Virus record (IMG/VR): IMGVR_UViG_2519899535_000001
Span: 3,526-67,525 of that record
Reading direction: 5' to 3' (one strand)
Length of the DNA: 64,000 bases
Source: a virus
Lineage: Duplodnaviria > Caudoviricetes
This document shows, piece by piece, positions 16,000 to 62,420 of this stretch. The first letter of the stretch is position 1. The number at the start of each line of letters is the position of its first letter. Under the pieces are notes generated by a model that was not told where the DNA came from, searched no databases, and was given only the letters and a program-made list of their open reading frames with translations. Position numbers and translations under genes: made by a program.

Positions 16000-17055
16000 A
16001 TGAGCCTTTTGTTCAGCAAAGACGAAATCCTGCTGGTGAACCGCAAGCTCGCGGCCCTCATCGGCCTCAATGAAGCCATCGTTCTGCAGCAGATCCACTA
16101 CTGGATCAAAAAGAAGGGCGGCGGGGTTGAGCACGCCGGTAGTCGCTGGGTTTTCAACTCCCTTGACCGCTGGCATGAACAGTTCCCCTTTTGGTCGCCT
16201 GACACCATCAAGCGCACCTTGGCCGCACTCAAAAACAAGGGTCTGGTGAAGGTCGAAAAACTGTCGGAAGTCGGCCGCGACCGGACCAACTACTACACCA
16301 TCGACTACGCGCAAATTGCACTGATGGAAGCGGGCAATTTGCACCAATGCATCGGTGCAAATTGCACCAATGGATCAGGGCAATCTGCACCGATGGATCA
16401 GGGCAAGTTGCACCAATCGATCAGTGCAAATTGCACCGATGACTGTATAGATACAAAGACTACAACAAAGACTACAACAAAGAATATTACGGCCAAGGCT
16501 GACGCCATGGCCGAGCCGATGCGGGTGACGGACAAGAAGGGTGTCGTCCACGAAATCCCCGCCGATCTGCGCTACCCCGGCAGCAAGACCAAAACCCACG
16601 ACGCATGGTGCGCCTACGCCATCGCGTACCGCACTCGCCACGGGGCATGGCCCGTCTGGAATGCCACCGTCGCCGGGCAGGTGTCCCAGTTCATCGACCG
16701 CGTGGGCGCCGAGCGTGCCCCCCGGGTGGCCTACCACTACGTTGCCAAGGTGCAGGAGCCTTTCGTGGTGAAGCAGATGCACCCCGTGAAGCTGCTGCTG
16801 TCGGACGCGGAGAAGTGGGCAACCCAGTGCCAGACCGGTGCAGCTGGGGCACCCGCAACGCCTGACGCGCCCACCGAGACATTCGCCCAGCGCGCTGCCC
16901 GCCAGCGCATGGAAGAGGCCGCGCCCGGGGTAGCCCGCAAGGCCCCCGGCGCTGAGAGCGGCTTTGAGGCGGCACAGCGCTTCATGGCCGGTGGGCCCGT
17001 CATCGACGTTCCGGCGCGCGAGGCCGCGCCGCGCATTGAAGGAGCAGCAGCATGA
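16000..17055 (+). CDS. Replication initiator (lambda O-like, wHTH)
   Basis: LAALIGLNEAIVLQQIHYW...WVFNS...FPFWS..TIKRTL..L...GLV; internal iterons. Confidence 0.9.
   Translation: MSLLFSKDEILLVNRKLAALIGLNEAIVLQQIHYWIKKKGGGVEHAGSRWVFNSLDRWHEQFPFWSPDTIKRTLAALKNKGLVKVEKLSEVGRDRTNYYTIDYAQIALMEAGNLHQCIGANCTNGSGQSAPMDQGKLHQSISANCTDDCIDTKTTTKTTTKNITAKADAMAEPMRVTDKKGVVHEIPADLRYPGSKTKTHDAWCAYAIAYRTRHGAWPVWNATVAGQVSQFIDRVGAERAPRVAYHYVAKVQEPFVVKQMHPVKLLLSDAEKWATQCQTGAAGAPATPDAPTETFAQRAARQRMEEAAPGVARKAPGAESGFEAAQRFMAGGPVIDVPAREAAPRIEGAAA
16332..16486. repeat. Replication origin: five ~23-bp iterons + A-rich 12-bp repeats
   Basis: RGKGCAANYTGCACCRATNNATC at 16332/16354/16377/16400/16423, then ACAACAAAGACT-type repeats. 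Confidence 0.9.
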
Positions 17056-43363: not shown

Positions 43364-43452
43364 GGTGACTCCCTCCGCACATCACTCTATCAGCAGTCCC
43401 AGCACAAGCGTTGGTGGTGCCGACGCGGCTGGTGAAGGGTGGCGCGCCCCGT

Positions 43453-43488
43453 ATAGGGTTCGGCGCTTTCAGCTCTGCACGCGAGCAT
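43453..43488 (+). promoter_or_regulatory. Late promoter motif 5 (giant gene)
   Basis: ATAGGGTT at 43453, GAGCAT at +30. Confidence 0.7.
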
Positions 43489-43494
43489 GCGTGC

Positions 43495-46400
43495 ATGAGC
43501 GATACCTTCTCCTACGAAGACGCCGCAAAGCCGGCACCCTCCACTAAGTCCGAATCGGCTAAGCCGTTCAGCTACGAAGAGGCGACGGGGCAGACCCCAT
43601 CGCGTGGCTTCAAGGGCTGGGCGCAGGATGTTGCAGGCACAGCAATCAACAGTGCCATCAGCGTGCCCGAGGCCGTCGTGGGCCTGGCCGACATCCCCAC
43701 GGGCGGTGCCGTAGGCAAGTTCTTGGAGAACGAGGGCGGCTCCGTAGGCTTCCGGCCCAAGCAGGCCAAAGAGTTTGTCAATGAAACGATCAAGTCTGAT
43801 GCTTCGCGCGAAGCCCACCGGAAGTTCAATGAGGCCGATGGCATCGTGGATAAGACGGTTGCTGCCATCCAAAACCCGAGCCTGATCCTTGAGGGTGTAG
43901 GTGAGTCTCTGGGCGCCATGGGTGCCGGTGGTGTTGCCTCGCGCGGTCTGATGGCCGCCACGAAACTCGGACAGATGGGCGCCAAGGGCGCTGCGCTGGC
44001 TGGCGCTGCTGGTGAGGGCATCACCATGGCGGGCTCTGCGGCCGAGCAGATCCGCCAAGAAACCCCGGATGGTTCGCTCACGCCTACTCAATCGGGCCTT
44101 GCTCTTGCGACCGGCCTTGTGGGTGGTGCCATCGGCGCATTCAGCGGGCGTGTCGCCAACAAACTGGGTATCGGTGACGCCGAAACCATGCTCGCCCAGG
44201 GCACAAAGGGTATGGCCAAGACAGAAGCGGACGGCGCAGCACGTGCAGCCGCGAACCCGCTGGTGCAGCAGCTGGCGGCCAAGAGCATCCCGCGCCAGGT
44301 GATCTCGGGGGCAATCTCCGAAGGCTTCCTCGAAGAACTGCCGCAGTCCGTGGCCGAGCAGATTTTCCAGAACGTGGCCCTGGGCAAGGACTGGCTGACG
44401 GATGTGGATTCAGCCGTGGTCATGGGCGTGCTGTCTGGTGGCGCTATGGGCGGCGCAGCCGCTGGCTACCACGGCATCAGGCAGCCGAAGGGCGGTGCTG
44501 GTGATGCGCCAACCGCCCAACCTGGCGCGGTACCCGCCGATGGCGGTGCGCAGCCGGGTGCCGCCCCCACCAACCCGGGCATGGAACGCATCCAGCAGGC
44601 ATTCGCTGCCCAACTGGCGGCGCTGCAGCAGCAGGAGCAGGGCGATCCGCCCGTGCCCCAGACCGCGCCACCCGATGGCGCCGCCGCGCTGGCGCAGCAG
44701 CAGGCCCAGGCCGAAGCCCAGCGCCAGGCTGCCATTGATGCCTCGCGCGCTGTGCAGAGCCCTGACGACGAGATTTACCAGTCCACGGGCATGCAGTCCA
44801 GTCAGAACGTGACGCGCGATGAAAATGCCGCGCCATCCATAGCGGACATGCTGGACACCGACGCCGTATACCGAGCCTGGAGCAATCTGCGGGATGGATC
44901 TGACCGCTCAACCATGCGTGGTCAGATGGACTATGTGGAGCGCACCTACGGCGGAAAGGTGAGCCCTGAAAACCGCGCATCCGCAGAGAAGGAACTTGCG
45001 CAGCAGTTCAAGTGGTTCCGCGCTGCCACGCCGGAGCAGCGTGCGGCCACGATGGACCGCCTGAGTGCACCCGATCCTGTCAAGCCTTCCGTCGCCATGG
45101 GCCTGAACCCTGCCGCAGGCCCGCTGTCTGCTGGTGCTGCACTGGCTGTCGATACCGGCGTATCTGACCAGGTGCAGCAGGCTGCCGCGCTGGCCCAGGC
45201 CGCCGAAGTGGCGCAAAAGCAGGGCAAGAAACCTGCCCAAAGCAATCAAAAACAAGAGCGGCAAGCGCTTACGCAGCAAGGTGTGAACCAAGAAACCGGC
45301 GAAATTTCGCAGGGCTTGCCCATGGAGAGCTGGAGCGATGCCCAGTTGTCCAACACCTTCCGTGGCGCTCAGTCGCGCGAGGTCCGCATGCAACTGGCCC
45401 AGGAACTGGGCCGACGCCGCGCACTGCGTGAGCAGCAGGAGCTGCAGGCCGAGCTGGATGCCGAACAGCGCGCCAGCGTGCCCGGTGCCGAGCGCGCCGA
45501 TGCCGCTTTTGCCTCCCTGACGGAAGACGCCGGCCCCGTACCGGCCGATCTGACCATTCCCGCAACCACAGAAGGAAACCGCAATGGCCCTCAAGCCGCC
45601 CAAGCCCAGCAAGGTAGCGCGCAACCGTCGCAAGTCGGAGCAGCGCCAGCAGTCGCACGTGGAGCACCAGATGCTCAAGGACGCTCAGGCGCGGATGGCG
45701 CGCAGCAAGCAGCCGCTGCAGGCCTGATCGATGGCGCCCCGACTGCGAACCCTGGAATGCAAGCAGCGGCAGCGCCAGGCGCGCAAGTTGCGCCGCAAGC
45801 AGAAGGCTCTGCACAGCGCGTAGCCAGCACTGGCGATGCATGGACGCGTATGCCCACTGCCGAACGCCAGGCCCTGGCCCAGCGGGCGGACCTCAAGCCC
45901 ATCGTGCGCAAGAACGTCCACCGCGCGGCCTGGGCCGATCTGAACCGCGATGTTCAGCGCAAGCTGGCCGAGGCGATGGAGCCCAGCGCGAAGAATGATG
46001 CAACCTACACCAAGGCTCTGGAGTTGGTGCGCAGCGCAGGCGTAGTGAAGCGTCCGGCTATTCAGGATGCCCTGGGTATTGGTTTCGATGAAGTCAATGC
46101 GCTGATGGAGCGCATGGAGCGCGAGGGCGTTGTGACTGCCGCCAAGGCGAATGGCGAACGTGCTTTGCTTTCCGTCGGCACATCGCCCACGGGCGAGGCT
46201 GCGCCAGTCGCAGCACCATCCGTATCCCGTCAGGATGCGGAGCAAGAGCAGGCCGGTACCAGCGCCGAATCTGCACCAGCAGCTATCAATTCAGAAGCGG
46301 ACAAGGACGGAAACACTATCGTCGGCCGCCGCTCTGACGGCGTGATGATTCGCCAGGACAAGAACGGCGTGCGCTGGTATGCCCAGGGCGGCGTGCGCAT

Positions 46401-49400
46401 CGAGGAAACCGTGTCCATGCGCCCCACGCGCCAGGGCATGCAGGTAACGCGCGGCGAGCTGAAACCCGAGTTCATGACGGCGGCAGAGAGCGAGGCGGCC
46501 AAGTCTGCTGCCAGCCCGGCACCAGCTGCAGAAAACGCCATCAATGTTTCTGATGAAAATCAGACCGGTACCAGCACCAAAGAAGCGCCGGTAGCTACGA
46601 ATTCAGTAGCAAAAAAGGCACCTCCTGCTGCCAAGAAGCCCAGCGCTGATCAGGTGCGCGCGCAGGCCGATCTGATGAACGCCCTGGCCGATCTGGGCGA
46701 CATCCTGGGCAAGAACACCCGCATGAACATCATGCCCGAGCAGGAGCAAAAGCTGCTGCCAGTGCTCACGCGCGTGCTGGATGCCGCTTTCCGCCTGGGG
46801 TATCACAAGTTCAAGGATTCGGCCAAGTTCGCCCTGGACCAGATCCGCGCCAACCTGGGCGACGATGCGGCTGACGCCCTGACGCTGGATCACCTGCAGG
46901 GCGCCTACATCGCCATGGCGGGGGGCAAGACGGGAGCGGATACCAAGCGCGCGGTCATCGACGTGGAGAGCAAGGCAGAAATTGAGGCGCACGAGGCCTC
47001 TGTTGCTGCAGAAGAGGACGAGGCCGATAATGCACAGCAGGAGAACCCCAGCGATGAGCGCACAACTGTACGAAGCGAAAGCCCGCAAGCACTGGACGCA
47101 GTGGCTGCCCAAGAAGGTGGCCGCGCTGAAAGCGAGCGGGGAGCTGGAGCAGGCGCTGCAAACAGCGGGCAAACAGGCGCAGCAGGAAGTGCTGTCGCTG
47201 ATGGAGCAGGGTTTTCGCCAGCACGAGGCGGAGGAAGTGGCGTTGAGCCAGTACGTGCTCCTAAAACCAGAGCCCGAGGCCGAGCTGGAGCCGTGGGAGC
47301 GCAAGGAGCTGGCGCAACTGGAGAGCCAGTACCGCAAGCAGATGGGCGCGTAGCCGTCCCTGGGGGCGAGGCCAGCGCCCCGAACATTCCTGCCGCCGAC
47401 TTCCAGATCACCGACGAGGTGGGCCTGGGCAAGGGCGGTGAGGTTCAAAAGTTCACCGACAACCTGGCCGCAATCCGCACCCTCAAGGCTATCGAGGCTG
47501 CCAACCGCCGCGCAACCCCGGAAGAACAGGCAATGCTGGCCCGCTATGTGGGCTGGGGTGGCCTGGCCAATGCATTCCCCGACCCCGGTACCGGCCAGTT
47601 CAAGGACAAGTGGCGTGCGCGTGGTGAGGAACTGCGCGATCTGCTGACCAAGGAGGAATACACCGCCGCGCGCCGCTCGACGCGAAACGCGCACTACACC
47701 TCCCAGACCGTGGTGTCGGCGATGTGGGATATGGTGCGCCGCCTGGGCTACCGTGGCGGATTGGTGCTGGAATCCTCGATGGGCTCCGGCAACTTCCTGG
47801 GCCTGGCCCCCAAGGACATGCCCAATCGGTTCGTGGGTGTCGAATACGACAGCCTGACCGCGCGCATCGGCCAAGCCCTGTACCCGCAGGCGACGGTGCT
47901 GCATTCCGGTTTCCAGAAGGTACCGGTGGCCGACAACGCTTTCATGCTGAACATCGGCAACCCGCCGTTCGGCAGCGAGTCCCTGCGCTTCCAGTTCAAG
48001 CCCGAGCTGCAGGGCGTGTCGATTCACAACCAGTTTTTCCGCGCTGGCATGGATGCGCTGCGCCCCGGCGGCATTCAGGCCATGGTGGTGTCGCGCTTCC
48101 TCATGGACGCGCAGGACAAGAGCAGCCGCTTGGCACTGGCCGCGCAGGCGCGCTTGGTGGCCGCGATCCGCTTGCCTGACACCGCATTCAAGGAGAACGC
48201 GCGCACGGAGGTGGTCACTGACATCCTGATCTTCCAGAAGATGGATGCGGGCGACCAGGCCGCGATGCAGGCCGCCATCACGGAATACAACAAGCTCAAG
48301 GCCAACAAGAAGGGGGCGGACGCAGCCGCCGCCGCGCTGGTGCCCTCCTGGGTGGAAACGGTCAAGGTGCCCGACCCGCTGGGCGGCGAGGCCATGAACG
48401 TCAACGCCTATTTCGCAGAGAACCCGGCGAATGTGCTGGGCGTCATGGAGCGCTCCGGTTCCATGCAGCATGGCGCAGACATCACAGTGCGCTTGGACAA
48501 TCCTGCAGAACTGGGCGAGCTGCTGCGCGCCGCTGTGCAGCGCCTGCCAGAAGGCATCCAGAACTTCCAGCAGGATGTGCTGGACGCTACCGCCGCGCGC
48601 CACAAGTCCATGAGCGACGCTCTGCGCATCGCCGTGGCCAACGAAGAGGCCGGGCACATCAAGGCCAGCCCGGACGGCAAGCTGCAGCGCGTGATCGAGC
48701 GCGAGACGCCGGAAGGCGATTTCGAGTTTGCCTACCAGGAGATTGACGAAAACAGCCCCTGGCATGAATCCCTGAGCCAGAACGCAGAGGGCCAGTGGTA
48801 CAGCATGGAGCCCGTGCTGGACGAGCAAGGCAAGAACGTCAAGGCCATGAACGCCAATGGCGAGGCCACGCGCAAGAACCTGTACGAGCGAAAGGTCTAC
48901 GCCAAGCCCGAGGACGTGCCCGAGAAGCTGCGCCTGGGCAAGCTGGGCATGAAGCGCCTCAGTGGGCTGGTGGGCCTGCGCGACCTGCTCAAGCGCCAGC
49001 TGGTGCTGGAAACGGCCGACGCCGTGCCCGCCATGATGGAGGGCAACCGCAAGAGCCTGGCCGCTGCCTACGAGGCATTCGTCAAGGCCAATGGCCCGGT
49101 GGGGCGTGCCACCAACATGAGACTGGCGATGACCATGCCGGACGGCGGCCTGATCGCCGCCCTGGAGGTGGACTACCAGCCCGAGCGCACCGCAGAGCAG
49201 GCTGCGCGCTCCGGGCTGGAGGCGCAGAAAGAGAAGGCCACGCCGGCACCGATCCTGCGTGAGCGCGTGGTGCCCAAGTATGAGCCCGCGACCAAGGCCG
49301 CCAGCCCATCGGACGCCCTGGCCATCACCCTGGCCGAGTCCGGCCGCGTGGACATGGACCGCATCGCCAGCCTCCTGGATATTAGCCCGGAGCAGGCTGG

Positions 49401-52400
49401 AGAGGCCTTGCAACAGGGCACTGACCCGTTGGTGTTCAAAGACCCTGAAACCGGCCTGTGGGAGACGGCCGACGCCTACCTGTCGGGCATGGTCAAGCGC
49501 AAGCTGAACGCTGCGCGCGCCGCTGGCATGACCAAAAACGCTCAGGCACTGGAGAAGGTCATTCCCGCCGACTGGACCGCAGAGAACGTGGCTGTGACCA
49601 TGGGCGCCACCTGGGTGCCGCCTGAAATCTATGCAGATTTTGTGCGCCATCTGGTGGGCGGCAAGGCGCGGGTGAGCTTTTCGGCTCTGACCAACAGTTT
49701 CAGTGTCAGCGTGGACGGCGCCGAGCGCACCAGCATGTCCAACTGGAGCAGCGAGGGTGCGCCAGCCGACTACATCATCACCCGCATCCTGAACAGCAAA
49801 GCTGTGACCGTCACCGCCCGCGATGCGGACGGCAACACCTTCATCGACAAGGAGCGCACCGCCCTGGCTGGGCTCAAGGCCCGCGAGATTGAGGCCGAGT
49901 TTGGCGACTGGGTTTTCAAGAATGGCGAGCGCCGCCAGCGTCTGGTGGATGTGTTCAACGAGAAGTTCAACACGCGCGTGGTGCGCCAGTTCAATGGGCA
50001 GCACCTGCAACTGCCCGGCAAGGTGCCCGACGCCATCCTCAAGATGCGCCGACACCAGATGAATGCCATCTGGCGCGGTATCTACGAGCGCTTCATGCTG
50101 GTGGACCACGCCGTGGGCGCGGGCAAGACCTTCACCGCCATCGCGCGTGCGATGGAGCGCCGCCGCATGGGGCTTTCGCGCAAGCCCATGGTGGCTGTCC
50201 CCAATCACCTGGTGGAGCAGTGGGCCGCCGATGTGTACCGTCTGTACCCTGGCGCCAAGGTGCTGGCCGCCGGCAAGAAGGATTTCGAGGCCAAGCGCCG
50301 CCGCCGCCTGTTCGGCAAGATCGCCACGGGCGACTGGGACATCGTGATCGTGCCCCATTCGTCCTTCGGGTTCATCGGCATTGCCCCGGAAACGGAGTCT
50401 CGCTACCTGGAGCTGGAAATGGCCCAGGCGCAGGCCGCCATCGAGGACGCCTGGGAGCAGGCCAAGGAGGACGGCACCGACAACGGGCGCCGCAAGCCCT
50501 TCAACGTGAAGGAGGCCGAGCGCCTGGCCGAGAAAATTCAGGCTCGCATGGATCGCCTGGCGGAGGGAGTGCGCGACCGCCTGCTGACCTTTGAGCAGCT
50601 GGGCGTGGATGACCTGACCGTGGACGAAGCCCATGAGTTCAAGAACCTGTACTACTCGTCCAACCTGACGGGTGTGCGCGGCATGGGCGACAAGACCGGT
50701 TCGCGCAAGGCCAACGACCTCTACAACAAGGTGCGGGTGCTGCGCGAGCAGCCCACCGGTAGCGTCACTTTCCTGACTGGCACACCGATCAGCAATAGCG
50801 CCGTGGAAATGTTCACGATGCTGCGCTACCTGGCGGCCGACGCGCTGGACGAAATGGGCCTGTCCCACTTCGACGCCTTCCGCGCGCAGTTCGTGGAGGC
50901 CACGCCTGCGTTTGAGCCCACCGAATCCGGCCGCCTCAAGCAGGTCACTCGCCTGGGCCGCACGTGGTCGAACATGCGCTCGCTGATGGACCTGTACTAC
51001 CAGGTCACGGACGCCGTGAGCCTGGACGACATCAAGCGCTTCTACGCCGAGGACAACCCCGGCCGCGAATTCCCTGTGCCCAAGGTGGCCGGTGGGAAGG
51101 ACCGCAACCTGGTGGCCATCAAGCCCACGCCAGCACAAGAACAGGGCCTCAAGGAGGTGATGGACGGATTCGACGGCCTGGACGGCATCGAAGACCCCTA
51201 CGAGCGCAACGCAGAGCGCCTGCGCCTGATGGACCGGGCGCGCAAGCTGTCTCTGGACATCCGTGCAGTGGACCCGCGCAGCACCAGCGCCGAGGAAGGC
51301 GGCAAGCTGCAGGTGGTGAGCGAGAACATCAAGCGCATCTACGACAAGTGGGATGCCGACAAGGGCACGCAGCTCGTATTCCTGGACCGCTCTGTTCCCA
51401 AGGCCAAGGGTGACGACGCGATCATCAAGGCCTACGATGACCTGATCGCCAAGCGTGATGCCGCACTGCGCGACGACAACCAAGAGGCGTTTGACGAGGC
51501 GCAAGAAGCCCTCGACCGCTACGATCCCCAGGAGATTGCCGAGCTGCGTATGGCGCAAACCTCCCCATGGAGCGCCTACCAGCAGATCAAGGACAACCTG
51601 ATCGCCGCTGGCATCCCCGCCAACGAAATCCGGTTCGTTCAGGAGGCCAACAACGACGAGCAGAAGGCCGCACTGTTTGACGCCGTGAACGGCGGCAAGG
51701 TGCGCGTAATGATCGGTTCGACCCCGCGCATGGGCGCCGGTACCAACGTGCAACAGCGCATCGTGGCACTGCATCACGTTGATGTGACCTGGAAGCCCAG
51801 CGACATCGAGCAGCGGGAGGGCCGTGCCATCCGCCAGGGCAACCTGCTCCTGGAGAAGTACGGCGATAGCTTCGAGGTGGAAATCCTGGCCTACGCCACC
51901 GAGCGCACGGTGGACGCCAAGATGTGGGACTTGAACGCGACCAAGCTGCGCACCATCAACGGTATCCGCAAATACGACGGCGCGTTTTCCATGGAGTTCG
52001 ATGACGAGGAAGCCGTGGGCATGGCCGAAATGGCTGCCCTGGCCTCCGGCAACCCCCTGTTGCTGGAGCGCGTCAAGACGGAATCGGAAATCACCACGCT
52101 GGAGCTGCAGGAGCGCGCTTTCCGCCGCAGGATGTTCGGCATCGAGGACGCGGTGGACAGCGCAGAGCGTGCTATCGAGCGCAACCCCGGCCGCATTGCC
52201 GACGAGCGCGCCAAGAAGGTAAAGGCGAATGCGGCCATGGAGGCGGCCGACGCGCGCAAGGCCGCGCGCCGCGTGACCATCGAGGGCAAGGAATACGACA
52301 ACCTGCGCGACGCTATGACCGCCGTGAACGAGGCCATCGAGCAGCAGCAGGGCGGCAAGCCCACGGCGCGCTACTCGATTTCCGTGGACGGCGCGCGCCT

Positions 52401-55400
52401 GACCAACAAGGACGGCATCGACACTGCGATTGGCGCTGCCCTGGGCGATGCATCCCTGTTCGATGTGACCATCGACGGGCGCCTGATCGCCCAACACACC
52501 GTTGCCGCACGTGAACTGGCCGCCAAGTTCAACGAGCTGACCAAGGGCATCCAAGCTGGCGACTCGCGCACCGCCACTGTGGGCGACATGCTGGGCTATG
52601 ACCTGGTGCTGGACGCCCAGGCCCGCGAAACCGGCAAGGGCGGCGCCCAGATCGACGCCTCGGTGTCGCTGGTGGACGCGGACGGTACCACCGTGACCAG
52701 CCGTGGATTGAATTCATTCGCAGTCAATCAGTCCGTGGTGCCCGCCAATGTTCGCAATCTGGTGACTGATCTGTTCGATGACATTGGCCGCCTGGCCAAC
52801 AGCAGCACCGACTACCTGGAGCGCCAGCTTGCGCGGGCGAAGGCAGATCTGCCGGCACTGCGCGAGCAGCTGAACCAGACGTTCCCCAAGGCGGCCGAGC
52901 TGGTTGCCAAGCGTGAGCGCCTGCGGGAGCTGGTGGGCATGCTGGAGGGCAAGCCGCAGAGCGCCGTTCAAACGACCCCTGAAGAAGCCGAGGCGGGTGA
53001 CGGATCTCCGGGGGGCGACGTGGCGGCATTCCGACGCGACGGTGCCGAAAGCTCAGAGCGGGCGACCGAGTTCGACGTGGATTCGTTCCTCAAGGCCATG
53101 GGGCGCCCAGCGGCCTACTCCGAGGCCGCGCAGCGGCAGGCCATAGACTCCGTTTCAGCCACGGTGGATGCCATCCGCACTGCCTGGGGCCCGAACGCGC
53201 CAGAGGTGGTGGTGGCCTTCGACATGCAGGATGAGCGCATCCCAGAGGCCGCCCGCAAGGCCGACCTGCGCCAGCGCAGCGGCGGCGCACGCGGAGCGCC
53301 CGAGGGCTTCTACTACCGTGGCAAGGCCTATCTGGTGGCCTCTCGCCTGAACACGCCAAATGATGCGGCGCGCGTGCTGTACCACGAGGTGCTGGGACAC
53401 CACGGTCTGCGCGGTAAGTTCGGCCGCGATCTGGACCAGGTGCTGAACCAGATCGCCACCATGCGCAAAGCCGAGGTGGCCGCCAAGATGCAGGAGTACG
53501 GCCTGCGGGGCGTGAACAGCCTGAGCGTGCGCGAGGCGGCCGAGGAAGTTCTGGCGGAAATGGCCGAGAAGAACCCCCAGCTGCCGTTTGTGCAGCGGGC
53601 GATTTCAGCCATCCGCAACTTCCTGCGCACCCATGTGCCGGGCTTCCAGAGCCTGCGCCTGACGGACAGCGACATCATTCAGGCGTACATCATGCCGGCA
53701 CGCGGATGGGTGGAGCGCGGTGGCCCCGGTGGTCCTGGTGGTGGTGTCAGTTTCAGCCGAGACGCGGGCCGAATGGAGGCGGACGCGCTCCGGCTGCTGG
53801 CCGCCGCAGCTCGCTCTTCCGGCAACGAGAACACCACGCTTGTCCTGGGGCCGGTGACAGACGATGCCTTGGCCATGCTGCAGCGCGAGGGCGTTCCTGT
53901 GGAGTCAGGCTATCGGCACACTGCCGACATGTATGCGGTGCGCCACGCCCTAAGTCGTCACGGCGATGCGCAAGTGGAGGCGAAGCAGGGCCAGCTGCCA
54001 CTGAGTGATGCGGACATCGCGGCCATTCCAGAGGCCATTGCAGCGCCGGATGCTTGGATTCTTGGGGCCAAGACGCCGCGCGGGCAAGACATCGTGGGCA
54101 ACCTAAAGCGATTGCCTGATGGAACGGTGCTGTATTTGGAGGAAGTGCGCTCGGGGCGCAAGGCGCTGGCGATGACCAGCATGAGAAAGTACCCCGGTAC
54201 GACGGATTTTGAAACGATCAGGAATCGAATCGTGCCGTCCTACGCCCAGAGCGATACCGGGGATTTGCGTATTGTCTATCCAGCCGGCGCTGCCGGTCAA
54301 GGAGAGGTCCTGTTCAGCCGCTCCAGCATGGCGGACTTGAAGGACAGTGCGCTGCAGCAGATCCACCAGACCCTGTCCCACCCCGGAAAGGTGTCGTTGT
54401 GGGATAAGACAGTGGGCACCATGCGCAACCTGGCAGAGCGCTCGCCGGTGTTCAAGCCGGTGTACGAGGCTGCGCAGCGCTTCATTGATGACGTTTCCAT
54501 GCTGGGCAACGATGCGGCCGACCGCGCGCCGCGCTTGCTGCCCCGGGTTGAAACGCTGGCCGACCTCAAGAAGAAGCCCATCACCGCCGCCGACAACCAG
54601 GCTGTGGCCAAGCCCCTGTTCGAGGGCACGCTGCTGTGGGCGCGCGATGTGGACGGCAAGCCAGTGACCACCGAGGCGCTGAACGCGAAGTACCGCAACA
54701 CCACGCCCGACGAAAAAGCGCAGATCCTGCTGCGCACCGGCAAGATTCAGGAGCAGATGCTCAAGGTATGGCGCGGCCTGCCGGTGGATCAGTACAACAC
54801 CATCATCAACAACAAATTTGATAGCACCATCCTCAAGCCGGGTGTTGTCTGGACGGCGAAAGAGCTGAAAGACTTGTTCGACCTGAGCGCCCAGCAGGTG
54901 AGCCTGTACCAGGAGGCGCGGGCCGCGATTGACCGATCGATCGACATGACCGCCCGCGCCGACATGCTGCGCGCGCTGGGTGCCGGATACGCTGGCCTGC
55001 GTGAGGCAGTGCTGGCGCAGGCCAGCGTGGAAGACGCGATGGTGCTCATCACGGACACGCTGCAGGCCGAGGCGCGCGAGCAGCCTGACCAGGCCGACCG
55101 CATCCTGAGCCTGAACAACGCCGTGGTGAAGAGCTACGAGCGCGCCCAGGCGCTGATGGAGGCCGGCTACGCGCCGCTGTCGCGCTTTGGCCGCTACACC
55201 GTGGACGTGGTGGGCAAGGACGGAACGCGCGAGTATTTCGGCATGTTTGAGTCGATGTACGAGTCCAACAAGATGAAGGCCGCCATGGAGAAGGAATTCC
55301 CAGGCGCGACCGTCACCCAGGGCACCATGAGCGATGAGGCATTCAAGCTGTTCCAGGGCATCACCCCGGAAAGCCTGGAGCACTTCGGTGAAATGTTGGG

Positions 55401-57183
55401 CTTGAGCGGCGATGGCAGCGATCCGAAGGACAAGGCATTTCAGGCATACCTGCAGCTGGCCAAAAACAACCACAGCGCGCTCAAGCGCCTGATCCACCGC
55501 AAGGGCATCAGTGGCTACAGCGAGGACGTGGGCCGCGTGCTCGCCAGCTTCGTGTACTCCAATGCGCGCCTGGCGGCCGGCGGTCTGAACGCAGGCACGC
55601 TGGAAACGGCCATCGAGGGCATCCCCAAGGAGCAGGGCGAGCTGCGCGACGTGGCGATGGGCCTGCGCAGCTACATCCAAGACCCGCAGGAGGAAGGCCA
55701 GGCCGTGCGCGGCATGCTCTTCGCGCAGTACCTGGGCGGCTCCGTGGCTTCGGCCATGGTCAACATGACCCAGCCTTTCCAGATCACCATGCCCTGGCTG
55801 TCCCAGTTCGGTGGCATGCGTAGCGCCGCATCGCACCTGGCTGCCGCAGTGCGCGACATGACCCGCCGCAGCAGCTACGAGCCAGACCTGGCCAAGGCGC
55901 TGCAAACGGCAGAGGCCGAGGGCATCGTTTCGCCCCAGGAAATTCACCAGCTCATGGCCCAGGCGCGGGGCGCGGGCTCGCTGCGCACGGGCGATGGCAC
56001 CAAGCTGGGCGACGCACGCGCCGCGGCGGCCAACAACTGGGAGCGGGTGAAGGTGGCATGGGGCCAGCCATTTGCACTGGCAGAGCAGTTCAACCGCCGC
56101 AGCACCTTCATCGCCGCCTATCGCATCGCCAAGGAGCAGGGCATGGCCGACCCGGCGAAGTTTGCCGAGCGTGCAGTGCAGGAAACGCAGTTTGTGTACT
56201 CCAAGGCGAACAAGCCGAAGTGGGCGCGCGGTGCCATCGGCGGCACGCTATTCACCTTCAAGACCTATTCGGTCAGCTACCTGGAGCTGATGCACCGCAT
56301 GTGGAGCCAGGGCGGCCCCGAGGGCAAGCGCGCCGTGGGCTGGGCCGTGGCCATGCTGCTGCTGATGGGTGGTGCTGGCGGCCTGCCGTTCATGGAGGAT
56401 GCCGAGGATCTGATCGACGGCGCCGGCCAGCTCATGGGCTACAACATCAGCACCAAGCACTGGCGCAAGCAGGCGCTGCGCGACGTGGTGGGCAAGGAGC
56501 TGGCCGACTTCATGGAGCAGGGTGTGTCCGGCTTGCCCGGTGCGCCCATCGACGTGTCCGGCCGCCTGGGCATGGGCAACCTAATCCCCGGCACCGGCCT
56601 GCTGCTGGCCAAGCAGAACCGGGAGCGGGACCTGCTGGAGGTGGCTGGGCCCGCGGGCGACCTGGTGGCGCGCGGCTTCACTGGCGCGCGCAAGCTGCTG
56701 ACCGGCGACGTGGTCGGCGCGGCGCTGGAGGTGTCGCCAACGGCGGCGCGCAATTGGGCCAAGGGCATCGACATGGGTACCAGCGGTATCTACAAGGATG
56801 CCAAGGGCTACAAGGTCATCGACACCACGCTGGAAGAGGCCATTGCGAAGTTCGCGGGCTTCCAACCCAAGAGCGTGGCCGAGGTGCAGGAGGCCAACTC
56901 CTTCATGCAGCGCTCCAAGAGCTTCTACATCCAGACCAGCAACGACATCAAGGCGCAGTGGGCACAGGCGGTGTTTGAGAAGGACGACGCCGCGCTGCAG
57001 CGAGTGCGCGACCGACTGGCCGCCTGGAACCGCAACAACCCGGACCAGCCTATCGTGGTGAAGATCCCGGACGTGATGAAGCGCGTGCGCGAAATGGGCA
57101 AGGACCGTACCCAGCGGATTGCCGACACCGCGCCCAAGGCCCTGCGGGATCAGATGCGGAGCATGGCCAAAGAGAACGGGTAG
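43495..57183 (+). CDS. Giant DarB-like polyvalent virion protein (~4,562 aa): N6-MTase, SNF2 helicase, HExxH peptidase-like, PBECR-like, PLxRFG, LPD38-like
   Basis: VLESSMGSGNF (47764), IGNPPFG (47953), HAVGAGKT (50107), DEAH (50623), QREGRAIRQGN (51811), HEVLGHH (53383), PLSRFG (55174). Confidence 0.9.
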   Translation: MSDTFSYEDAAKPAPSTKSESAKPFSYEEATGQTPSRGFKGWAQDVAGTAINSAISVPEAVVGLADIPTGGAVGKFLENEGGSVGFRPKQAKEFVNETIKSDASREAHRKFNEADGIVDKTVAAIQNPSLILEGVGESLGAMGAGGVASRGLMAATKLGQMGAKGAALAGAAGEGITMAGSAAEQIRQETPDGSLTPTQSGLALATGLVGGAIGAFSGRVANKLGIGDAETMLAQGTKGMAKTEADGAARAAANPLVQQLAAKSIPRQVISGAISEGFLEELPQSVAEQIFQNVALGKDWLTDVDSAVVMGVLSGGAMGGAAAGYHGIRQPKGGAGDAPTAQPGAVPADGGAQPGAAPTNPGMERIQQAFAAQLAALQQQEQGDPPVPQTAPPDGAAALAQQQAQAEAQRQAAIDASRAVQSPDDEIYQSTGMQSSQNVTRDENAAPSIADMLDTDAVYRAWSNLRDGSDRSTMRGQMDYVERTYGGKVSPENRASAEKELAQQFKWFRAATPEQRAATMDRLSAPDPVKPSVAMGLNPAAGPLSAGAALAVDTGVSDQVQQAAALAQAAEVAQKQGKKPAQSNQKQERQALTQQGVNQETGEISQGLPMESWSDAQLSNTFRGAQSREVRMQLAQELGRRRALREQQELQAELDAEQRASVPGAERADAAFASLTEDAGPVPADLTIPATTEGNRNGPQAAQAQQGSAQPSQVGAAPAVARGAPDAQGRSGADGAQQAAAAGLIDGAPTANPGMQAAAAPGAQVAPQAEGSAQRVASTGDAWTRMPTAERQALAQRADLKPIVRKNVHRAAWADLNRDVQRKLAEAMEPSAKNDATYTKALELVRSAGVVKRPAIQDALGIGFDEVNALMERMEREGVVTAAKANGERALLSVGTSPTGEAAPVAAPSVSRQDAEQEQAGTSAESAPAAINSEADKDGNTIVGRRSDGVMIRQDKNGVRWYAQGGVRIEETVSMRPTRQGMQVTRGELKPEFMTAAESEAAKSAASPAPAAENAINVSDENQTGTSTKEAPVATNSVAKKAPPAAKKPSADQVRAQADLMNALADLGDILGKNTRMNIMPEQEQKLLPVLTRVLDAAFRLGYHKFKDSAKFALDQIRANLGDDAADALTLDHLQGAYIAMAGGKTGADTKRAVIDVESKAEIEAHEASVAAEEDEADNAQQENPSDERTTVRSESPQALDAVAAQEGGRAESERGAGAGAANSGQTGAAGSAVADGAGFSPARGGGSGVEPVRAPKTRARGRAGAVGAQGAGATGEPVPQADGRVAVPGGEASAPNIPAADFQITDEVGLGKGGEVQKFTDNLAAIRTLKAIEAANRRATPEEQAMLARYVGWGGLANAFPDPGTGQFKDKWRARGEELRDLLTKEEYTAARRSTRNAHYTSQTVVSAMWDMVRRLGYRGGLVLESSMGSGNFLGLAPKDMPNRFVGVEYDSLTARIGQALYPQATVLHSGFQKVPVADNAFMLNIGNPPFGSESLRFQFKPELQGVSIHNQFFRAGMDALRPGGIQAMVVSRFLMDAQDKSSRLALAAQARLVAAIRLPDTAFKENARTEVVTDILIFQKMDAGDQAAMQAAITEYNKLKANKKGADAAAAALVPSWVETVKVPDPLGGEAMNVNAYFAENPANVLGVMERSGSMQHGADITVRLDNPAELGELLRAAVQRLPEGIQNFQQDVLDATAARHKSMSDALRIAVANEEAGHIKASPDGKLQRVIERETPEGDFEFAYQEIDENSPWHESLSQNAEGQWYSMEPVLDEQGKNVKAMNANGEATRKNLYERKVYAKPEDVPEKLRLGKLGMKRLSGLVGLRDLLKRQLVLETADAVPAMMEGNRKSLAAAYEAFVKANGPVGRATNMRLAMTMPDGGLIAALEVDYQPERTAEQAARSGLEAQKEKATPAPILRERVVPKYEPATKAASPSDALAITLAESGRVDMDRIASLLDISPEQAGEALQQGTDPLVFKDPETGLWETADAYLSGMVKRKLNAARAAGMTKNAQALEKVIPADWTAENVAVTMGATWVPPEIYADFVRHLVGGKARVSFSALTNSFSVSVDGAERTSMSNWSSEGAPADYIITRILNSKAVTVTARDADGNTFIDKERTALAGLKAREIEAEFGDWVFKNGERRQRLVDVFNEKFNTRVVRQFNGQHLQLPGKVPDAILKMRRHQMNAIWRGIYERFMLVDHAVGAGKTFTAIARAMERRRMGLSRKPMVAVPNHLVEQWAADVYRLYPGAKVLAAGKKDFEAKRRRRLFGKIATGDWDIVIVPHSSFGFIGIAPETESRYLELEMAQAQAAIEDAWEQAKEDGTDNGRRKPFNVKEAERLAEKIQARMDRLAEGVRDRLLTFEQLGVDDLTVDEAHEFKNLYYSSNLTGVRGMGDKTGSRKANDLYNKVRVLREQPTGSVTFLTGTPISNSAVEMFTMLRYLAADALDEMGLSHFDAFRAQFVEATPAFEPTESGRLKQVTRLGRTWSNMRSLMDLYYQVTDAVSLDDIKRFYAEDNPGREFPVPKVAGGKDRNLVAIKPTPAQEQGLKEVMDGFDGLDGIEDPYERNAERLRLMDRARKLSLDIRAVDPRSTSAEEGGKLQVVSENIKRIYDKWDADKGTQLVFLDRSVPKAKGDDAIIKAYDDLIAKRDAALRDDNQEAFDEAQEALDRYDPQEIAELRMAQTSPWSAYQQIKDNLIAAGIPANEIRFVQEANNDEQKAALFDAVNGGKVRVMIGSTPRMGAGTNVQQRIVALHHVDVTWKPSDIEQREGRAIRQGNLLLEKYGDSFEVEILAYATERTVDAKMWDLNATKLRTINGIRKYDGAFSMEFDDEEAVGMAEMAALASGNPLLLERVKTESEITTLELQERAFRRRMFGIEDAVDSAERAIERNPGRIADERAKKVKANAAMEAADARKAARRVTIEGKEYDNLRDAMTAVNEAIEQQQGGKPTARYSISVDGARLTNKDGIDTAIGAALGDASLFDVTIDGRLIAQHTVAARELAAKFNELTKGIQAGDSRTATVGDMLGYDLVLDAQARETGKGGAQIDASVSLVDADGTTVTSRGLNSFAVNQSVVPANVRNLVTDLFDDIGRLANSSTDYLERQLARAKADLPALREQLNQTFPKAAELVAKRERLRELVGMLEGKPQSAVQTTPEEAEAGDGSPGGDVAAFRRDGAESSERATEFDVDSFLKAMGRPAAYSEAAQRQAIDSVSATVDAIRTAWGPNAPEVVVAFDMQDERIPEAARKADLRQRSGGARGAPEGFYYRGKAYLVASRLNTPNDAARVLYHEVLGHHGLRGKFGRDLDQVLNQIATMRKAEVAAKMQEYGLRGVNSLSVREAAEEVLAEMAEKNPQLPFVQRAISAIRNFLRTHVPGFQSLRLTDSDIIQAYIMPARGWVERGGPGGPGGGVSFSRDAGRMEADALRLLAAAARSSGNENTTLVLGPVTDDALAMLQREGVPVESGYRHTADMYAVRHALSRHGDAQVEAKQGQLPLSDADIAAIPEAIAAPDAWILGAKTPRGQDIVGNLKRLPDGTVLYLEEVRSGRKALAMTSMRKYPGTTDFETIRNRIVPSYAQSDTGDLRIVYPAGAAGQGEVLFSRSSMADLKDSALQQIHQTLSHPGKVSLWDKTVGTMRNLAERSPVFKPVYEAAQRFIDDVSMLGNDAADRAPRLLPRVETLADLKKKPITAADNQAVAKPLFEGTLLWARDVDGKPVTTEALNAKYRNTTPDEKAQILLRTGKIQEQMLKVWRGLPVDQYNTIINNKFDSTILKPGVVWTAKELKDLFDLSAQQVSLYQEARAAIDRSIDMTARADMLRALGAGYAGLREAVLAQASVEDAMVLITDTLQAEAREQPDQADRILSLNNAVVKSYERAQALMEAGYAPLSRFGRYTVDVVGKDGTREYFGMFESMYESNKMKAAMEKEFPGATVTQGTMSDEAFKLFQGITPESLEHFGEMLGLSGDGSDPKDKAFQAYLQLAKNNHSALKRLIHRKGISGYSEDVGRVLASFVYSNARLAAGGLNAGTLETAIEGIPKEQGELRDVAMGLRSYIQDPQEEGQAVRGMLFAQYLGGSVASAMVNMTQPFQITMPWLSQFGGMRSAASHLAAAVRDMTRRSSYEPDLAKALQTAEAEGIVSPQEIHQLMAQARGAGSLRTGDGTKLGDARAAAANNWERVKVAWGQPFALAEQFNRRSTFIAAYRIAKEQGMADPAKFAERAVQETQFVYSKANKPKWARGAIGGTLFTFKTYSVSYLELMHRMWSQGGPEGKRAVGWAVAMLLLMGGAGGLPFMEDAEDLIDGAGQLMGYNISTKHWRKQALRDVVGKELADFMEQGVSGLPGAPIDVSGRLGMGNLIPGTGLLLAKQNRERDLLEVAGPAGDLVARGFTGARKLLTGDVVGAALEVSPTAARNWAKGIDMGTSGIYKDAKGYKVIDTTLEEAIAKFAGFQPKSVAEVQEANSFMQRSKSFYIQTSNDIKAQWAQAVFEKDDAALQRVRDRLAAWNRNNPDQPIVVKIPDVMKRVREMGKDRTQRIADTAPKALRDQMRSMAKENG
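45584..45727 (+). CDS. Nested +1-frame basic peptide (47 aa) MALKPPKPSKVARNRRKSEQ...
   Basis: AAGGA RBS at 45572; GC-rich third positions in the +1 frame, A/T-rich in the main frame. Confidence 0.55.
   Translation: MALKPPKPSKVARNRRKSEQRQQSHVEHQMLKDAQARMARSKQPLQA
45731..45823 (+). CDS. Nested +1-frame basic peptide (30 aa) MAPRLRTLECKQRQRQARKLRRKQKALHSA
   Basis: Starts 3 nt after previous nested stop; same codon-bias shift. Confidence 0.4.
   Translation: MAPRLRTLECKQRQRQARKLRRKQKALHSA
47054..47353 (+). CDS. Nested +1-frame gene (99 aa) MSAQLYEAKARKHWTQWLPKK..., TnpV-like helical protein
   Basis: AGGAG RBS at 47039; typical codon usage and globular sequence while the main frame is G/A/R-rich. 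Confidence 0.75.
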   Translation: MSAQLYEAKARKHWTQWLPKKVAALKASGELEQALQTAGKQAQQEVLSLMEQGFRQHEAEEVALSQYVLLKPEPEAELEPWERKELAQLESQYRKQMGA

Positions 57184-60384: not shown

Positions 60385-61662
60385 TCATGCCACCCTGCGC
60401 AACCGGACCACGTTCGCCTCACCATCGCGGCCGGGTGGGGCGCTGTTCTCGCACCCCACCAGGTAGTCGGCCCAGAGTTTCAGGGCCCTGCGGCGCTCCG
60501 GTATTTCCTCCCGCACGTCATAGACCCCCTCCATGCCCTTGAGTGTGTGGTTCAGGGCGATCTCGGAGATTTCGCGCGACACCCCCATGTTCATGAGGTG
60601 GCCCTTGGCCGTGCTGCGCGTGTCGTGGGGGGTGAATTTACGGATGTCCATGTCGCCGCGCTCAAACGCGCGCCGCAGTGCCGCCCAAAGGGTTGTGCGC
60701 CCGATAGGTACATCGCCCAGCTCTTTGGAGCGGTCAGCGCGGCGAGTGGGCAGCACGTACATGGAGTCGCCAGAAAGGGCGATCAGCTCGTGGAACCAGT
60801 CAACGACGACCGGGGCGAGGGGCACCAGGAAGCCGGCGCGGGTTTTGACGGACTCTGCTGGCACCCACCAGGTGCCAGCCTCCAGATCCAGGTGTTCCTT
60901 CTTGGCCTTCACCAGCTCCACCCCGCGCACGCAGGTGGCCAGCAGGATGCGGAAGGCCAGGGCGTTCTCGCGGCCGATGAAGTCGATGCCCGGCAGCAGG
61001 GATTGCAGCTCCTTGTTCTCCAGCATGACGCGCTGGCGTGTCTTGGGGCGAGGACCCTTGAGCGCGGACAGCTTGATGCCGGTGCACGGATTGGCCGCAA
61101 TGAGAGTCAGCCCGCAGGCGTGGTCGAGAACCTTGGAGATAGAGGTGAGCAGCCGCTTTGTCATCAGCCACGTTCGGCCGCTCTCTTTGAGGACTTTCAC
61201 GACATCAATGCTTGTCACCTTGTCCACCTGCCAGGAACCCAGGCGCGGAAGGATCACCTGGTCGATGTCGGCATTGCGGTAGTAGATGGTGTCCTCTGCG
61301 AACACATCCGGGCGGAGCACCTTCTCTCGATAGTCGGCAACCAGCTCGCGCATGGTCCATGCTGCTGCGGTGCGCGACTTGCGCTCCTGCTTTTCGGCCG
61401 CCGGGTCCGCGCCACCGTCGATGGATGCGCGCAGCGCGCGGGCTTTCTCCCGTGCCGCCGCGAGTGTCACGTCCGGGTAGCTGCCGATGGTCAGCTCGCG
61501 CCGCCGCCCGCCCTGCACGCGATACCGGAGCACCCAGGTTGCGGTGCCGCCTTTGGAGAGGGTGAATGTCAGCCCATCGCCATCCGACTTGGCGACCGCC
61601 TCACCTTTTGAGATCCAGCGCTTGATCTGTATGTCGGTGAGCGTGTGACTGATTTTGGGCAT
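60385..61662 (-). CDS. int: Tyrosine integrase with N-terminal arm-binding domain (P4-like)
   Basis: LTDIQIK...SDGDGL...W..RYR..G.RR..TIG.YP..TLA.AR; R, HDTRST, LNH, GVYD catalytic motifs. Confidence 0.95.
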   Translation of the reverse strand: MPKISHTLTDIQIKRWISKGEAVAKSDGDGLTFTLSKGGTATWVLRYRVQGGRRRELTIGSYPDVTLAAAREKARALRASIDGGADPAAEKQERKSRTAAAWTMRELVADYREKVLRPDVFAEDTIYYRNADIDQVILPRLGSWQVDKVTSIDVVKVLKESGRTWLMTKRLLTSISKVLDHACGLTLIAANPCTGIKLSALKGPRPKTRQRVMLENKELQSLLPGIDFIGRENALAFRILLATCVRGVELVKAKKEHLDLEAGTWWVPAESVKTRAGFLVPLAPVVVDWFHELIALSGDSMYVLPTRRADRSKELGDVPIGRTTLWAALRRAFERGDMDIRKFTPHDTRSTAKGHLMNMGVSREISEIALNHTLKGMEGVYDVREEIPERRRALKLWADYLVGCENSAPPGRDGEANVVRLRRVA

Positions 61663-61678
61663 CGGCAGTCCTTTTTTT

Positions 61679-61714
61679 GGGTAGCTAGGAGTGTAGCTAC
61701 CCACCTAGCTACCC
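61679..61714. repeat. TAGCTACCC repeats (arm-type/Xis sites)
   Basis: Direct at 61694 and 61706, inverted at 61679. Confidence 0.6.
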
Positions 61715-61822
61715 GGAGTTGATGCGCCAATGAGAATCAGTGTGCGACAGTGTGAATCAAAAAACCCAATGAAAACAACGGCTTGCGATACTGGCTGAGA
61801 CGTTGTGATCCACTCTGAAACA

Positions 61823-61852
61823 CTAATTGAAATTCCAGGTGGCAATTTGCAT
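61823..61852 (-). pseudogene. xth: 5' remnant of exodeoxyribonuclease III gene (MQIATWNFN*) = probable att junction
   Basis: ATG CAA ATT GCC ACC TGG AAT TTC AAT TAG matches the ExoIII N-terminal IATWNVNS motif, then diverges. Confidence 0.7.
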
Positions 61853-61867
61853 GGTTTTTGGCCGGTA

Positions 61868-61899
61868 GCGCTAGTGGATCAAGCGCTGGCAGCTATCAA
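61868..61899. repeat. Host intergenic palindromic element
   Basis: GCGCT-N9-AGCGC-N5-GCTATCAA. Confidence 0.6.
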
Positions 61900-61931
61900 A
61901 ATGTGAGTAGAAGAGTGATGGGGCTGCGCCG

Positions 61932-62420
61932 TCAGCTGCGGCGCACACGGGTCACAAAGCTGAACGACAGTCCGTTGGTGCTGACATGGTGCTCGCGGGC
62001 GGTTTCTACCCATTCTGCGCCCAGCACGGGGGCATAGGCATCGCCGTCAAAGTCTTGCGCAATCTCCGTCACCTCCACGCAGTCCGCCAGGGGCAGGGCC
62101 TCGGCATAGATCTGCGCGCCACCGATGATCCACACGGTCTTGCCCGTGTCGCAAAGCGCCAGGGCTTCCGCCAGGCTGCCAGCGCGGTGGGCACCCTCGG
62201 CCTGCCAGTCGCCCTGGCGCGTCACCACGATGTTGGTGCGGCCGGGCAGTGGGCGAAAGCGCGGGGGCAGCGAGTCCCAGGTCTTGCGGCCCATGACCAC
62301 CGGGCAGCCCTGCGTGAGCTGCTTGAAGTGCGCCATGTCCTCGGGGATGTGCCAAGGCAGGCGGTTGTCCTTGCCGATGACGCCGTTGGCCGCGCGGGCG
62401 TAAATGAGGTGCAGGGGCAT
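61932..62420 (-). CDS. folA: Dihydrofolate reductase
   Basis: IYARAANGVIGKDNRLPWHIPEDMAHFK..T.G.PVVMGRKTWDSLP..PLPGR.N; IIGGAQIY. Confidence 0.97.
   Translation of the reverse strand: MPLHLIYARAANGVIGKDNRLPWHIPEDMAHFKQLTQGCPVVMGRKTWDSLPPRFRPLPGRTNIVVTRQGDWQAEGAHRAGSLAEALALCDTGKTVWIIGGAQIYAEALPLADCVEVTEIAQDFDGDAYAPVLGAEWVETAREHHVSTNGLSFSFVTRVRRS

Follow-up and report, generated by a model that had tools for sequence, protein, structure and literature searches.

The first seven codons of xth, the gene for exodeoxyribonuclease III, are very probably the integration site of a temperate phage (about 65.7 kb) in its Acidovorax host. The phage would have entered by conservative site-specific recombination catalyzed by its own P4-like integrase. 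All four attachment sites, attL, attR, attB, and attP, are documented in natural sequences. The DNA-repair gene is not switched off, which corrects an interpretation of the insertion as a gene disruption, and the element replaces every signal 5′ of its start codon. With this, xth joins the short list of protein genes that have a conserved attB at the 5′ end, and extends a known type of gene-restoring integration to a new target.

The xth stub and core sequence at attL

The stretch of 64,000 nucleotides that was analyzed (the window) corresponds to G000:C1:1869289-1933288, as placed by a whole-genome search with the xth family model. The prophage occupies positions 1–61832 of the window, and continues for 3,836 bp past the window start to G000:C1:1865453, where it meets attR and the rebuilt xth. 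At the opposite end, direct reading of the minus strand from 61852 to 61823 gives ATG CAA ATT GCC ACC TGG AAT TTC AAT TAG, i.e., MQIATWNFN followed by a stop, which agrees with the earlier note, where MQIATWN followed by FN and a stop had been described at the phage boundary. This xth stub (61823..61852, minus strand) contains the native start codon and codons 2–7, and then three phage-derived codons with TAG. The stub overlaps the attL copy of a 20-bp core, ATGCAAATTGCCACCTGGAA, at 61833..61852 on the minus strand, which is common to attP and attB, and is an exact direct repeat of G000:C1:1865433-1865452. In the genome of 5,196,935 bp, the core is present exactly twice, at G000:C1:1865433 and 1931121, with both copies on the minus strand, in the same orientation, and 65,688 bp apart. 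A repeat search of the window, from which the other junction is 3.8 kb removed, returned no second core copy, and the 20-mer overlapping the stub has one match in the window compared with none expected from shuffles. When the two junctions are compared ungapped, the identity is limited to the 20 core bases. Strand exchange probably takes place in the 3′ part of the core, GCC-ACC-TGG-AA, and the limits of identity in other elements (see below) narrow the crossover to codons 4–7.

The host gene directly 5′ of attB is folA (61932..62420, minus strand), coding for dihydrofolate reductase (Pfam DHFR_1, 2.6e-52). It is the last in a same-strand series of thyA, a DUF4337 gene, and folA that precedes the stub. 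The distance from the folA stop to the stub is 79 bp, and from the stub to the integrase ATG 160 bp. No tRNA or tmRNA gene was found in the window, or beside those related integrases that do not have an xth stub.

The stub is short, which is the only point in favor of a chance match, or of a partial copy of the xth start made by local duplication, with no integration at xth. Such an explanation is exceedingly improbable, since the only two occurrences of the 20-mer in 5.2 Mb coincide exactly with the ends of a block of phage genes, and a full-length xth genuinely starts at the distal one. Furthermore, empty sites and attP both exist, and the arrangement of stub and integrase recurs in other genera.

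The rebuilt xth at attR

Two outcomes of lysogeny had been considered in the earlier note: that the main AP endonuclease is disabled, as a mutator switch, or that xth is rebuilt at the other junction. Inspection of the other prophage end, as suggested there, located the rest of the gene, and it is the second alternative that holds. A complete xth of 259 amino acids without stops is present at attR, 3.8 kb before the window start (L001:1492-2271, equivalent to C1:1864673-1865452, minus strand). Against TIGR00633, the translated product scores 251 bits (cut-off 99) over model positions 1–254 of 255, with the match placed at C1:1864682-1865452, it matches Pfam Exo_endo_phos at 1.4e-32, and it is 96–97% identical to relatives. 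The gene begins with the 20 bases of the stub, and continues C GTG AAC TCC, such that the N-terminus is unchanged. Hence, the enzyme is not knocked out by lysogeny. The coding sequence of xth survives, and everything 5′ of the start codon is replaced.

The view that lysogeny disrupts xth, and thereby switches the main AP endonuclease off in a reversible way, like the comK or mutL insertions, has some appeal from within the window, where only a nine-codon stub follows the native upstream region, and such switches do exist for other genes. It is nevertheless highly improbable, and refuted at the sequence level by the complete xth with an identical N-terminus at the other junction. Rebuilding of xth is also seen in three other family elements, and the genome contains a second Exo_endo_phos paralogue (L002).

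Empty attB sites and the folA–xth spacer

The placement of attB at the 5′ end of xth, as proposed in the earlier note, is supported on both points that could have refuted it: the rest of xth is found at the other junction, and in the prophage-free relatives to which the earlier note had pointed for comparison, xth directly follows folA. Of 24 other genomes of the same genus, 14 have folA, a spacer of about 85 bp, and xth on the same strand, as an empty attB. The spacer of these empty sites corresponds, block for block, to the sequence between folA and the stub in the window (61853..61931, minus strand; 14 empty sites and the window aligned), i.e., the native folA–xth spacer has been severed from xth and now faces the stub and int. 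Conserved blocks across the genus are TTGATAGCT, TTACTCAC-TTATTGATAGCT, a palindrome AGCGCTT-N7-AAGCGCT, and GGCCAAAAAC directly before the ATG. The spacer has no Rfam match, and its hairpin shows almost no covariation in the alignment (A1), for which reason we read it as a DNA palindrome rather than an RNA element. Judging from this conservation, the spacer is possibly an operator.

In the remaining ten of the 24 genomes, the gene order is different or not readable, and seven were looked at further. Old insertions were considered for G008, G004, G009, G022, and G010, and rejected. The DNA between folA and xth in these genomes is unrelated, with neither a stub after folA nor a homologous integrase, which indicates that the gene order differs and that these are not old insertions. 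In two further genomes of the genus, no folA was found near xth within the 5–12 kb examined. The G005 contig begins 47 bp before xth. In G016 (G016:C242; L051, 6600-7080), the DNA 5′ of xth is AT-rich and foreign-looking, and the GGGTAGCC motif is found there once. Also 5′ of xth in this locus are an HTH gene, small and divergent, and an ORF of 1,094 amino acids, and folA is absent within 7 kb. A search of G016, a genome that is 75% complete, gave no integrase homologue. The region may represent another element at the xth start.

The integrase and the attachment-site arms

The integrase gene (60385..61662, minus strand) codes for a protein of 425 amino acids, identified from its Pfam domains and from homologues that adjoin xth stubs elsewhere. 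The N-terminal domain is Arm-DNA-bind_3 (PF13356, 6.8e-23, residues 8–93), and the C-terminal domain is Phage_integrase (PF00589, 3.1e-15, residues 214–377). The central domain matches Phage_int_M (PF22022) at 1.3e-05, with a score of 25.8 bits that is slightly below the cut-off of 27. Possible counterparts of the catalytic R...HxxR...Y residues can be seen in the translation as the candidate motifs VRGVE, HDTR, NH..., and GVYD. Based on the presence of both arm-binding and catalytic domains, the protein can be classified as an integrase of the heterobivalent (lambda/P4-like) type.

The P′ arm of the prophage, as read from the sequence, lies between the core and int (61663..61832, minus strand). 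At 61679–61714 it contains a block of three GGGTAGCTA-type repeats, two direct and one inverted, and repeats of this type are found in both the P and P′ arms. They are likely the arm-type binding sites of the integrase. In addition, a 19-nt motif, GGGTAGCTAGGTGGGTAGC, has only two occurrences in the genome, one just inside each end of the element, and occupies the corresponding position in the elements of Luteimonas, Lysobacter, IMG/VR, and BcepC6B. An exact match to the IHF consensus WATCAANNNNTTR, about 20 nt before the start codon, is present in only two of six P arms, and an IHF site is therefore not claimed for the Acidovorax prophage.

With a pattern built from the stubs, two contigs were found in IMG/VR that display the order expected of attP, i.e., P arm, core, P′ arm, and an integrase 96–97% identical to that of the window (IMGVR_UViG_3300024955_000001 and IMGVR_UViG_3300024966_000042). 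Blocks in these contigs align with each end of the prophage at 79–94% nucleotide identity. The former contig comprises 68,578 bp, and is apparently circular since the 30-mer at its first base recurs near the end. The same stub and attL are found beside folA in a MAG (L033), a second Acidovorax genome, with an integrase that is 99% identical.

This MAG is the only other genome among those searched that carries the element, as might be expected if it were a fixed, immobile prophage remnant with relic att-like repeats. We consider such a remnant improbable. Both copies of the core are perfect 20-mers, the arm motifs are intact at both ends, and the genes for integrase, terminase, portal, capsid, and lysis have open reading frames. 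Moreover, a phage with a 96–97% identical integrase is seen as the apparently circular attP contig.

The reaction that we favor, integration by site-specific recombination, would start from a phage attP carrying a 20-bp copy of the xth start that extends from the ATG as far as the second base of codon 7, with arm-type repeats on both sides, and an IHF-consensus site as well in some relatives. Recombination between attP and attB would yield attL, with the native folA–xth spacer, the nine-codon stub, and int, and attR, with the phage HTH_17 gene, a phage leader of 117 nt, and the complete and unchanged xth. As a consequence of this exchange, the conserved upstream region of the host would now read toward int.

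Related integrases at xth in other elements

An integrase adjoins a truncated 5′ fragment of xth in the window and in loci L033–L035, L066–L069, and L074. Beside xth stubs in other Comamonadaceae, Luteimonas, and Lysobacter, the integrases are 43–66% identical to that of the window, in elements of 6–17 kb. The integrase of Luteimonas arsenica (65% identical) follows the stub MKIASCNFF-stop, and xth is rebuilt about 17 kb away, and that of Lysobacter changpingensis (62% identical) follows MKIASWNFY-stop, with xth rebuilt about 6.3 kb away. Within the bacterial family of the host, 14 of 400 genomes contain an integrase homologue (E < 1e-60), and five of these loci have an xth-start stub directly upstream, at identities of 57–62% and 44%. 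In G162, xth is rebuilt in cis, 12.8 kb from the stub. A strict stub pattern returned only three genome records among 185,579 species representatives.

That the 5′ end of the rebuilt gene comes from the element is evident from the Luteimonas and Lysobacter elements, which supply GTG where the native xth has ATG, and from the G162 element, which changes MQF to MRL in the N-terminus. The new 5′ end keeps the xth ORF open in G000, Luteimonas, Lysobacter, and G162. In all cases, the sequence common to attL and attR is GCS-ASC-TGG-AA in codons 4–7, encoding A-T/S-W-N, which is likely the exchange region. The asparagine belongs to the conserved active-site region in enzymes of the ExoIII/APE1 family, which would explain the invariance of this site.

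In a maximum-likelihood tree of 24 integrases, with target labels assigned from the flanks read (L064 and L065 being unclear or off-target), the xth-adjacent sequences form one clade (97/95) and one basal clade. A 100/100 clade of integrases that follow the 3′ terminus of an RNase G/E-like gene nests as sister of the main xth-adjacent clade, and the basal xth-adjacent clade lies outside both. These RNase G/E-adjacent integrases (44–48% identity; L070–L073, L075, L076, and L078, positions about 1100–1500) are accompanied by GGGTAGCT repeats. The RNase G/E-like gene that precedes them ends in EQYDIVLM-stop, in agreement with the rngG adjacency reported for the integrase family of the phn island.

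Three further genomes show less regular arrangements. In L065 (G080:C42), a 64%-identical integrase is found inside a CheY-like receiver gene that ends in KLETCELN-stop about 270 nt upstream of int; the junction resembles the xth core, and may be a secondary (look-alike) attachment site. G321 (L064; L086/L087, C12:246735 and 1706) has a stub beginning MPISLASWK and an xth on the same contig beginning MLASWN. The 20-mers of stub and gene differ only at the three ATG bases, and the contig order is unlike that of a simple insertion. G065 has two integrases of the xth-associated family, an xth with an internal TAG (L079, C1:3302072-3302845), and a second partial xth copy 1.2 Mb away (L084, C1:4484590-4484940), which may reflect rearrangement between elements.

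The cultured Burkholderia phage BcepC6B (NC_005887) encodes an integrase, gp25, that is 58% identical to that of the window. Just upstream of gp25, between two sets of arm-type repeats, there is an unannotated ORF (L085, 1282-1440) with the start MKIATC (ATG AAA ATC GCA ACT TGC), preceded by AAGAGGA. We predict that this ORF is an attP core that mimics the xth start, and that xth is the integration site of BcepC6B. A BcepC6B-specific pattern found no lysogen of this phage among the 185,579 species representatives. For prophages and islands of Burkholderiales and Xanthomonadales in general, the arrangement provides a rule for locating the element border, namely at least six native xth codons that run into element sequence beside an integrase.

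Signals upstream of xth and int in the lysogen

At the far end of the prophage, a gene for a 65-residue HTH_17 protein (AlpA/Xis-like) points toward xth, with its stop 117 nt before the rebuilt start codon. The protein is a putative directionality factor. The whole left arm of the prophage reads toward xth together with this gene, and no terminator is predicted between the HTH_17 gene and the rebuilt xth on the strand that reads toward xth. Consensus scans gave no terminator at either junction, and no sigma-70 consensus promoter in the phage leader or in the native folA–xth spacer. The phage promoter that the earlier note had put forward for a rebuilt xth is a supposition. Nor is there a clear Shine-Dalgarno sequence in either of the two leaders. 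The rebuilt xth is presumably still expressed in the lysogen.

A different outcome would be that the xth ORF is rebuilt but silent, weakly expressed, or tied to early or excision transcription of the prophage, with changed repair capacity. The genus-conserved spacer blocks, including the palindrome, now face int, the phage leader contains no recognizable promoter, and the HTH_17 gene and left arm read toward xth with no predicted terminator in between, which are all in line with such a change. On the other hand, at least four elements on distant hosts share the design, and each supplies a 5′ end that follows the codons of its own host, which argues that selection keeps xth working. The native spacer is equally devoid of a consensus promoter, and xth may thus normally be read through from folA. 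On balance, altered repair capacity of this kind appears rather unlikely.

We hold with similar reserve the idea of a two-way promoter swap, in which xth would be detached from its genus-conserved, operator-like spacer and tied to prophage transcription, and the folA–xth upstream region would drive the stub and int, with physiological consequences; as it stands, this is doubtful. If it were true, lysogeny would retune AP-endonuclease levels, tolerance to oxidative damage, and mutation rate, and expression of the integrase would be linked to a housekeeping or stress promoter of the host. An integrase clade spanning Burkholderiales and Xanthomonadales would then have kept the arrangement because the ATWN-coding xth start is as invariant as a tRNA gene.

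Comparison with known systems

P4-like integrases are known for gene-restoring integration at the 3′ ends of tRNA and tmRNA genes, and phage 21 and e14 integrate in icd. As for these elements, an attP copy of the gene end keeps the target intact in the xth system, and a heterobivalent integrase acts with arm sites. Unlike in those cases, it is the 5′ end of xth that is replaced, so that the exchange affects promoter and translation-start signals and not the terminator. In active lysogeny, or regulated gene integrity, exemplified by the comK prophage of Listeria and by SpyCIM1 in mutL, a mobile element likewise resides inside a gene of DNA metabolism and its excision restores the native locus, but the gene is broken or silenced during integration, whereas xth is rebuilt intact at attR. 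We found no paper in the literature that names xth as attB. The TIGER paper (NAR 2020) reportedly lists integration target genes, and a prior listing of xth in the TIGER target-gene database is possible.

The closest known parallel is dusA, whose 5′ end is the insertion site of an integrase family in more than 200 bacteria, and is replaced by island-borne sequence (Farrugia et al. 2015, NAR 43:4547, PMC4482086). As for the dusA integrases, a conserved 5′ stretch of one housekeeping protein gene is targeted in many Proteobacteria, and a replacement 5′ end is supplied. The cargo is similarly varied, from small islands to prophages, and it is the integrase that the elements have in common. Unlike dusA, the target comprises the start codon of xth (codons 1–7), and the protein sequence is unchanged in the case of the window. 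Because the target lies at the start codon itself, the element must supply both start codon and leader. The parallel would concern the logic only, and does not imply membership in the dusA-associated integrase (DAI) clade. P4-like relatives of BcepC6B gp25 adjacent to rng have been described for the phn island (Hickey et al. 2012, PMC3318190). With 44–48% identity and the same GGGTAGCT-type arm repeats, these relatives are members of one family with the xth integrases, but unlike the latter, they follow the 3′ end of an RNase G/E-like gene.

The prophage body

Genes recognized in the prophage include those for a replication initiator, the large terminase, portal, major head protein, a head-closure protein, lysozyme, and an N4 gp49-like protein. 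A single ORF of 4,590 amino acids extends over 43411–57183 on the plus strand, and its only Pfam matches are a PBECR3 nuclease (residues 3491–3598) and a sub-threshold FtsK gamma domain (861–920). The replication initiator gene (16000–17055) is DnaD-like or O-like by PHROG. Inside this gene, at 16296–16433, there are at least five 23-bp repeats of the type CACC-AATG-N-ATC-N-G-GCAA-N-TTG, which by analogy with lambda O are probably iterons of the phage origin.
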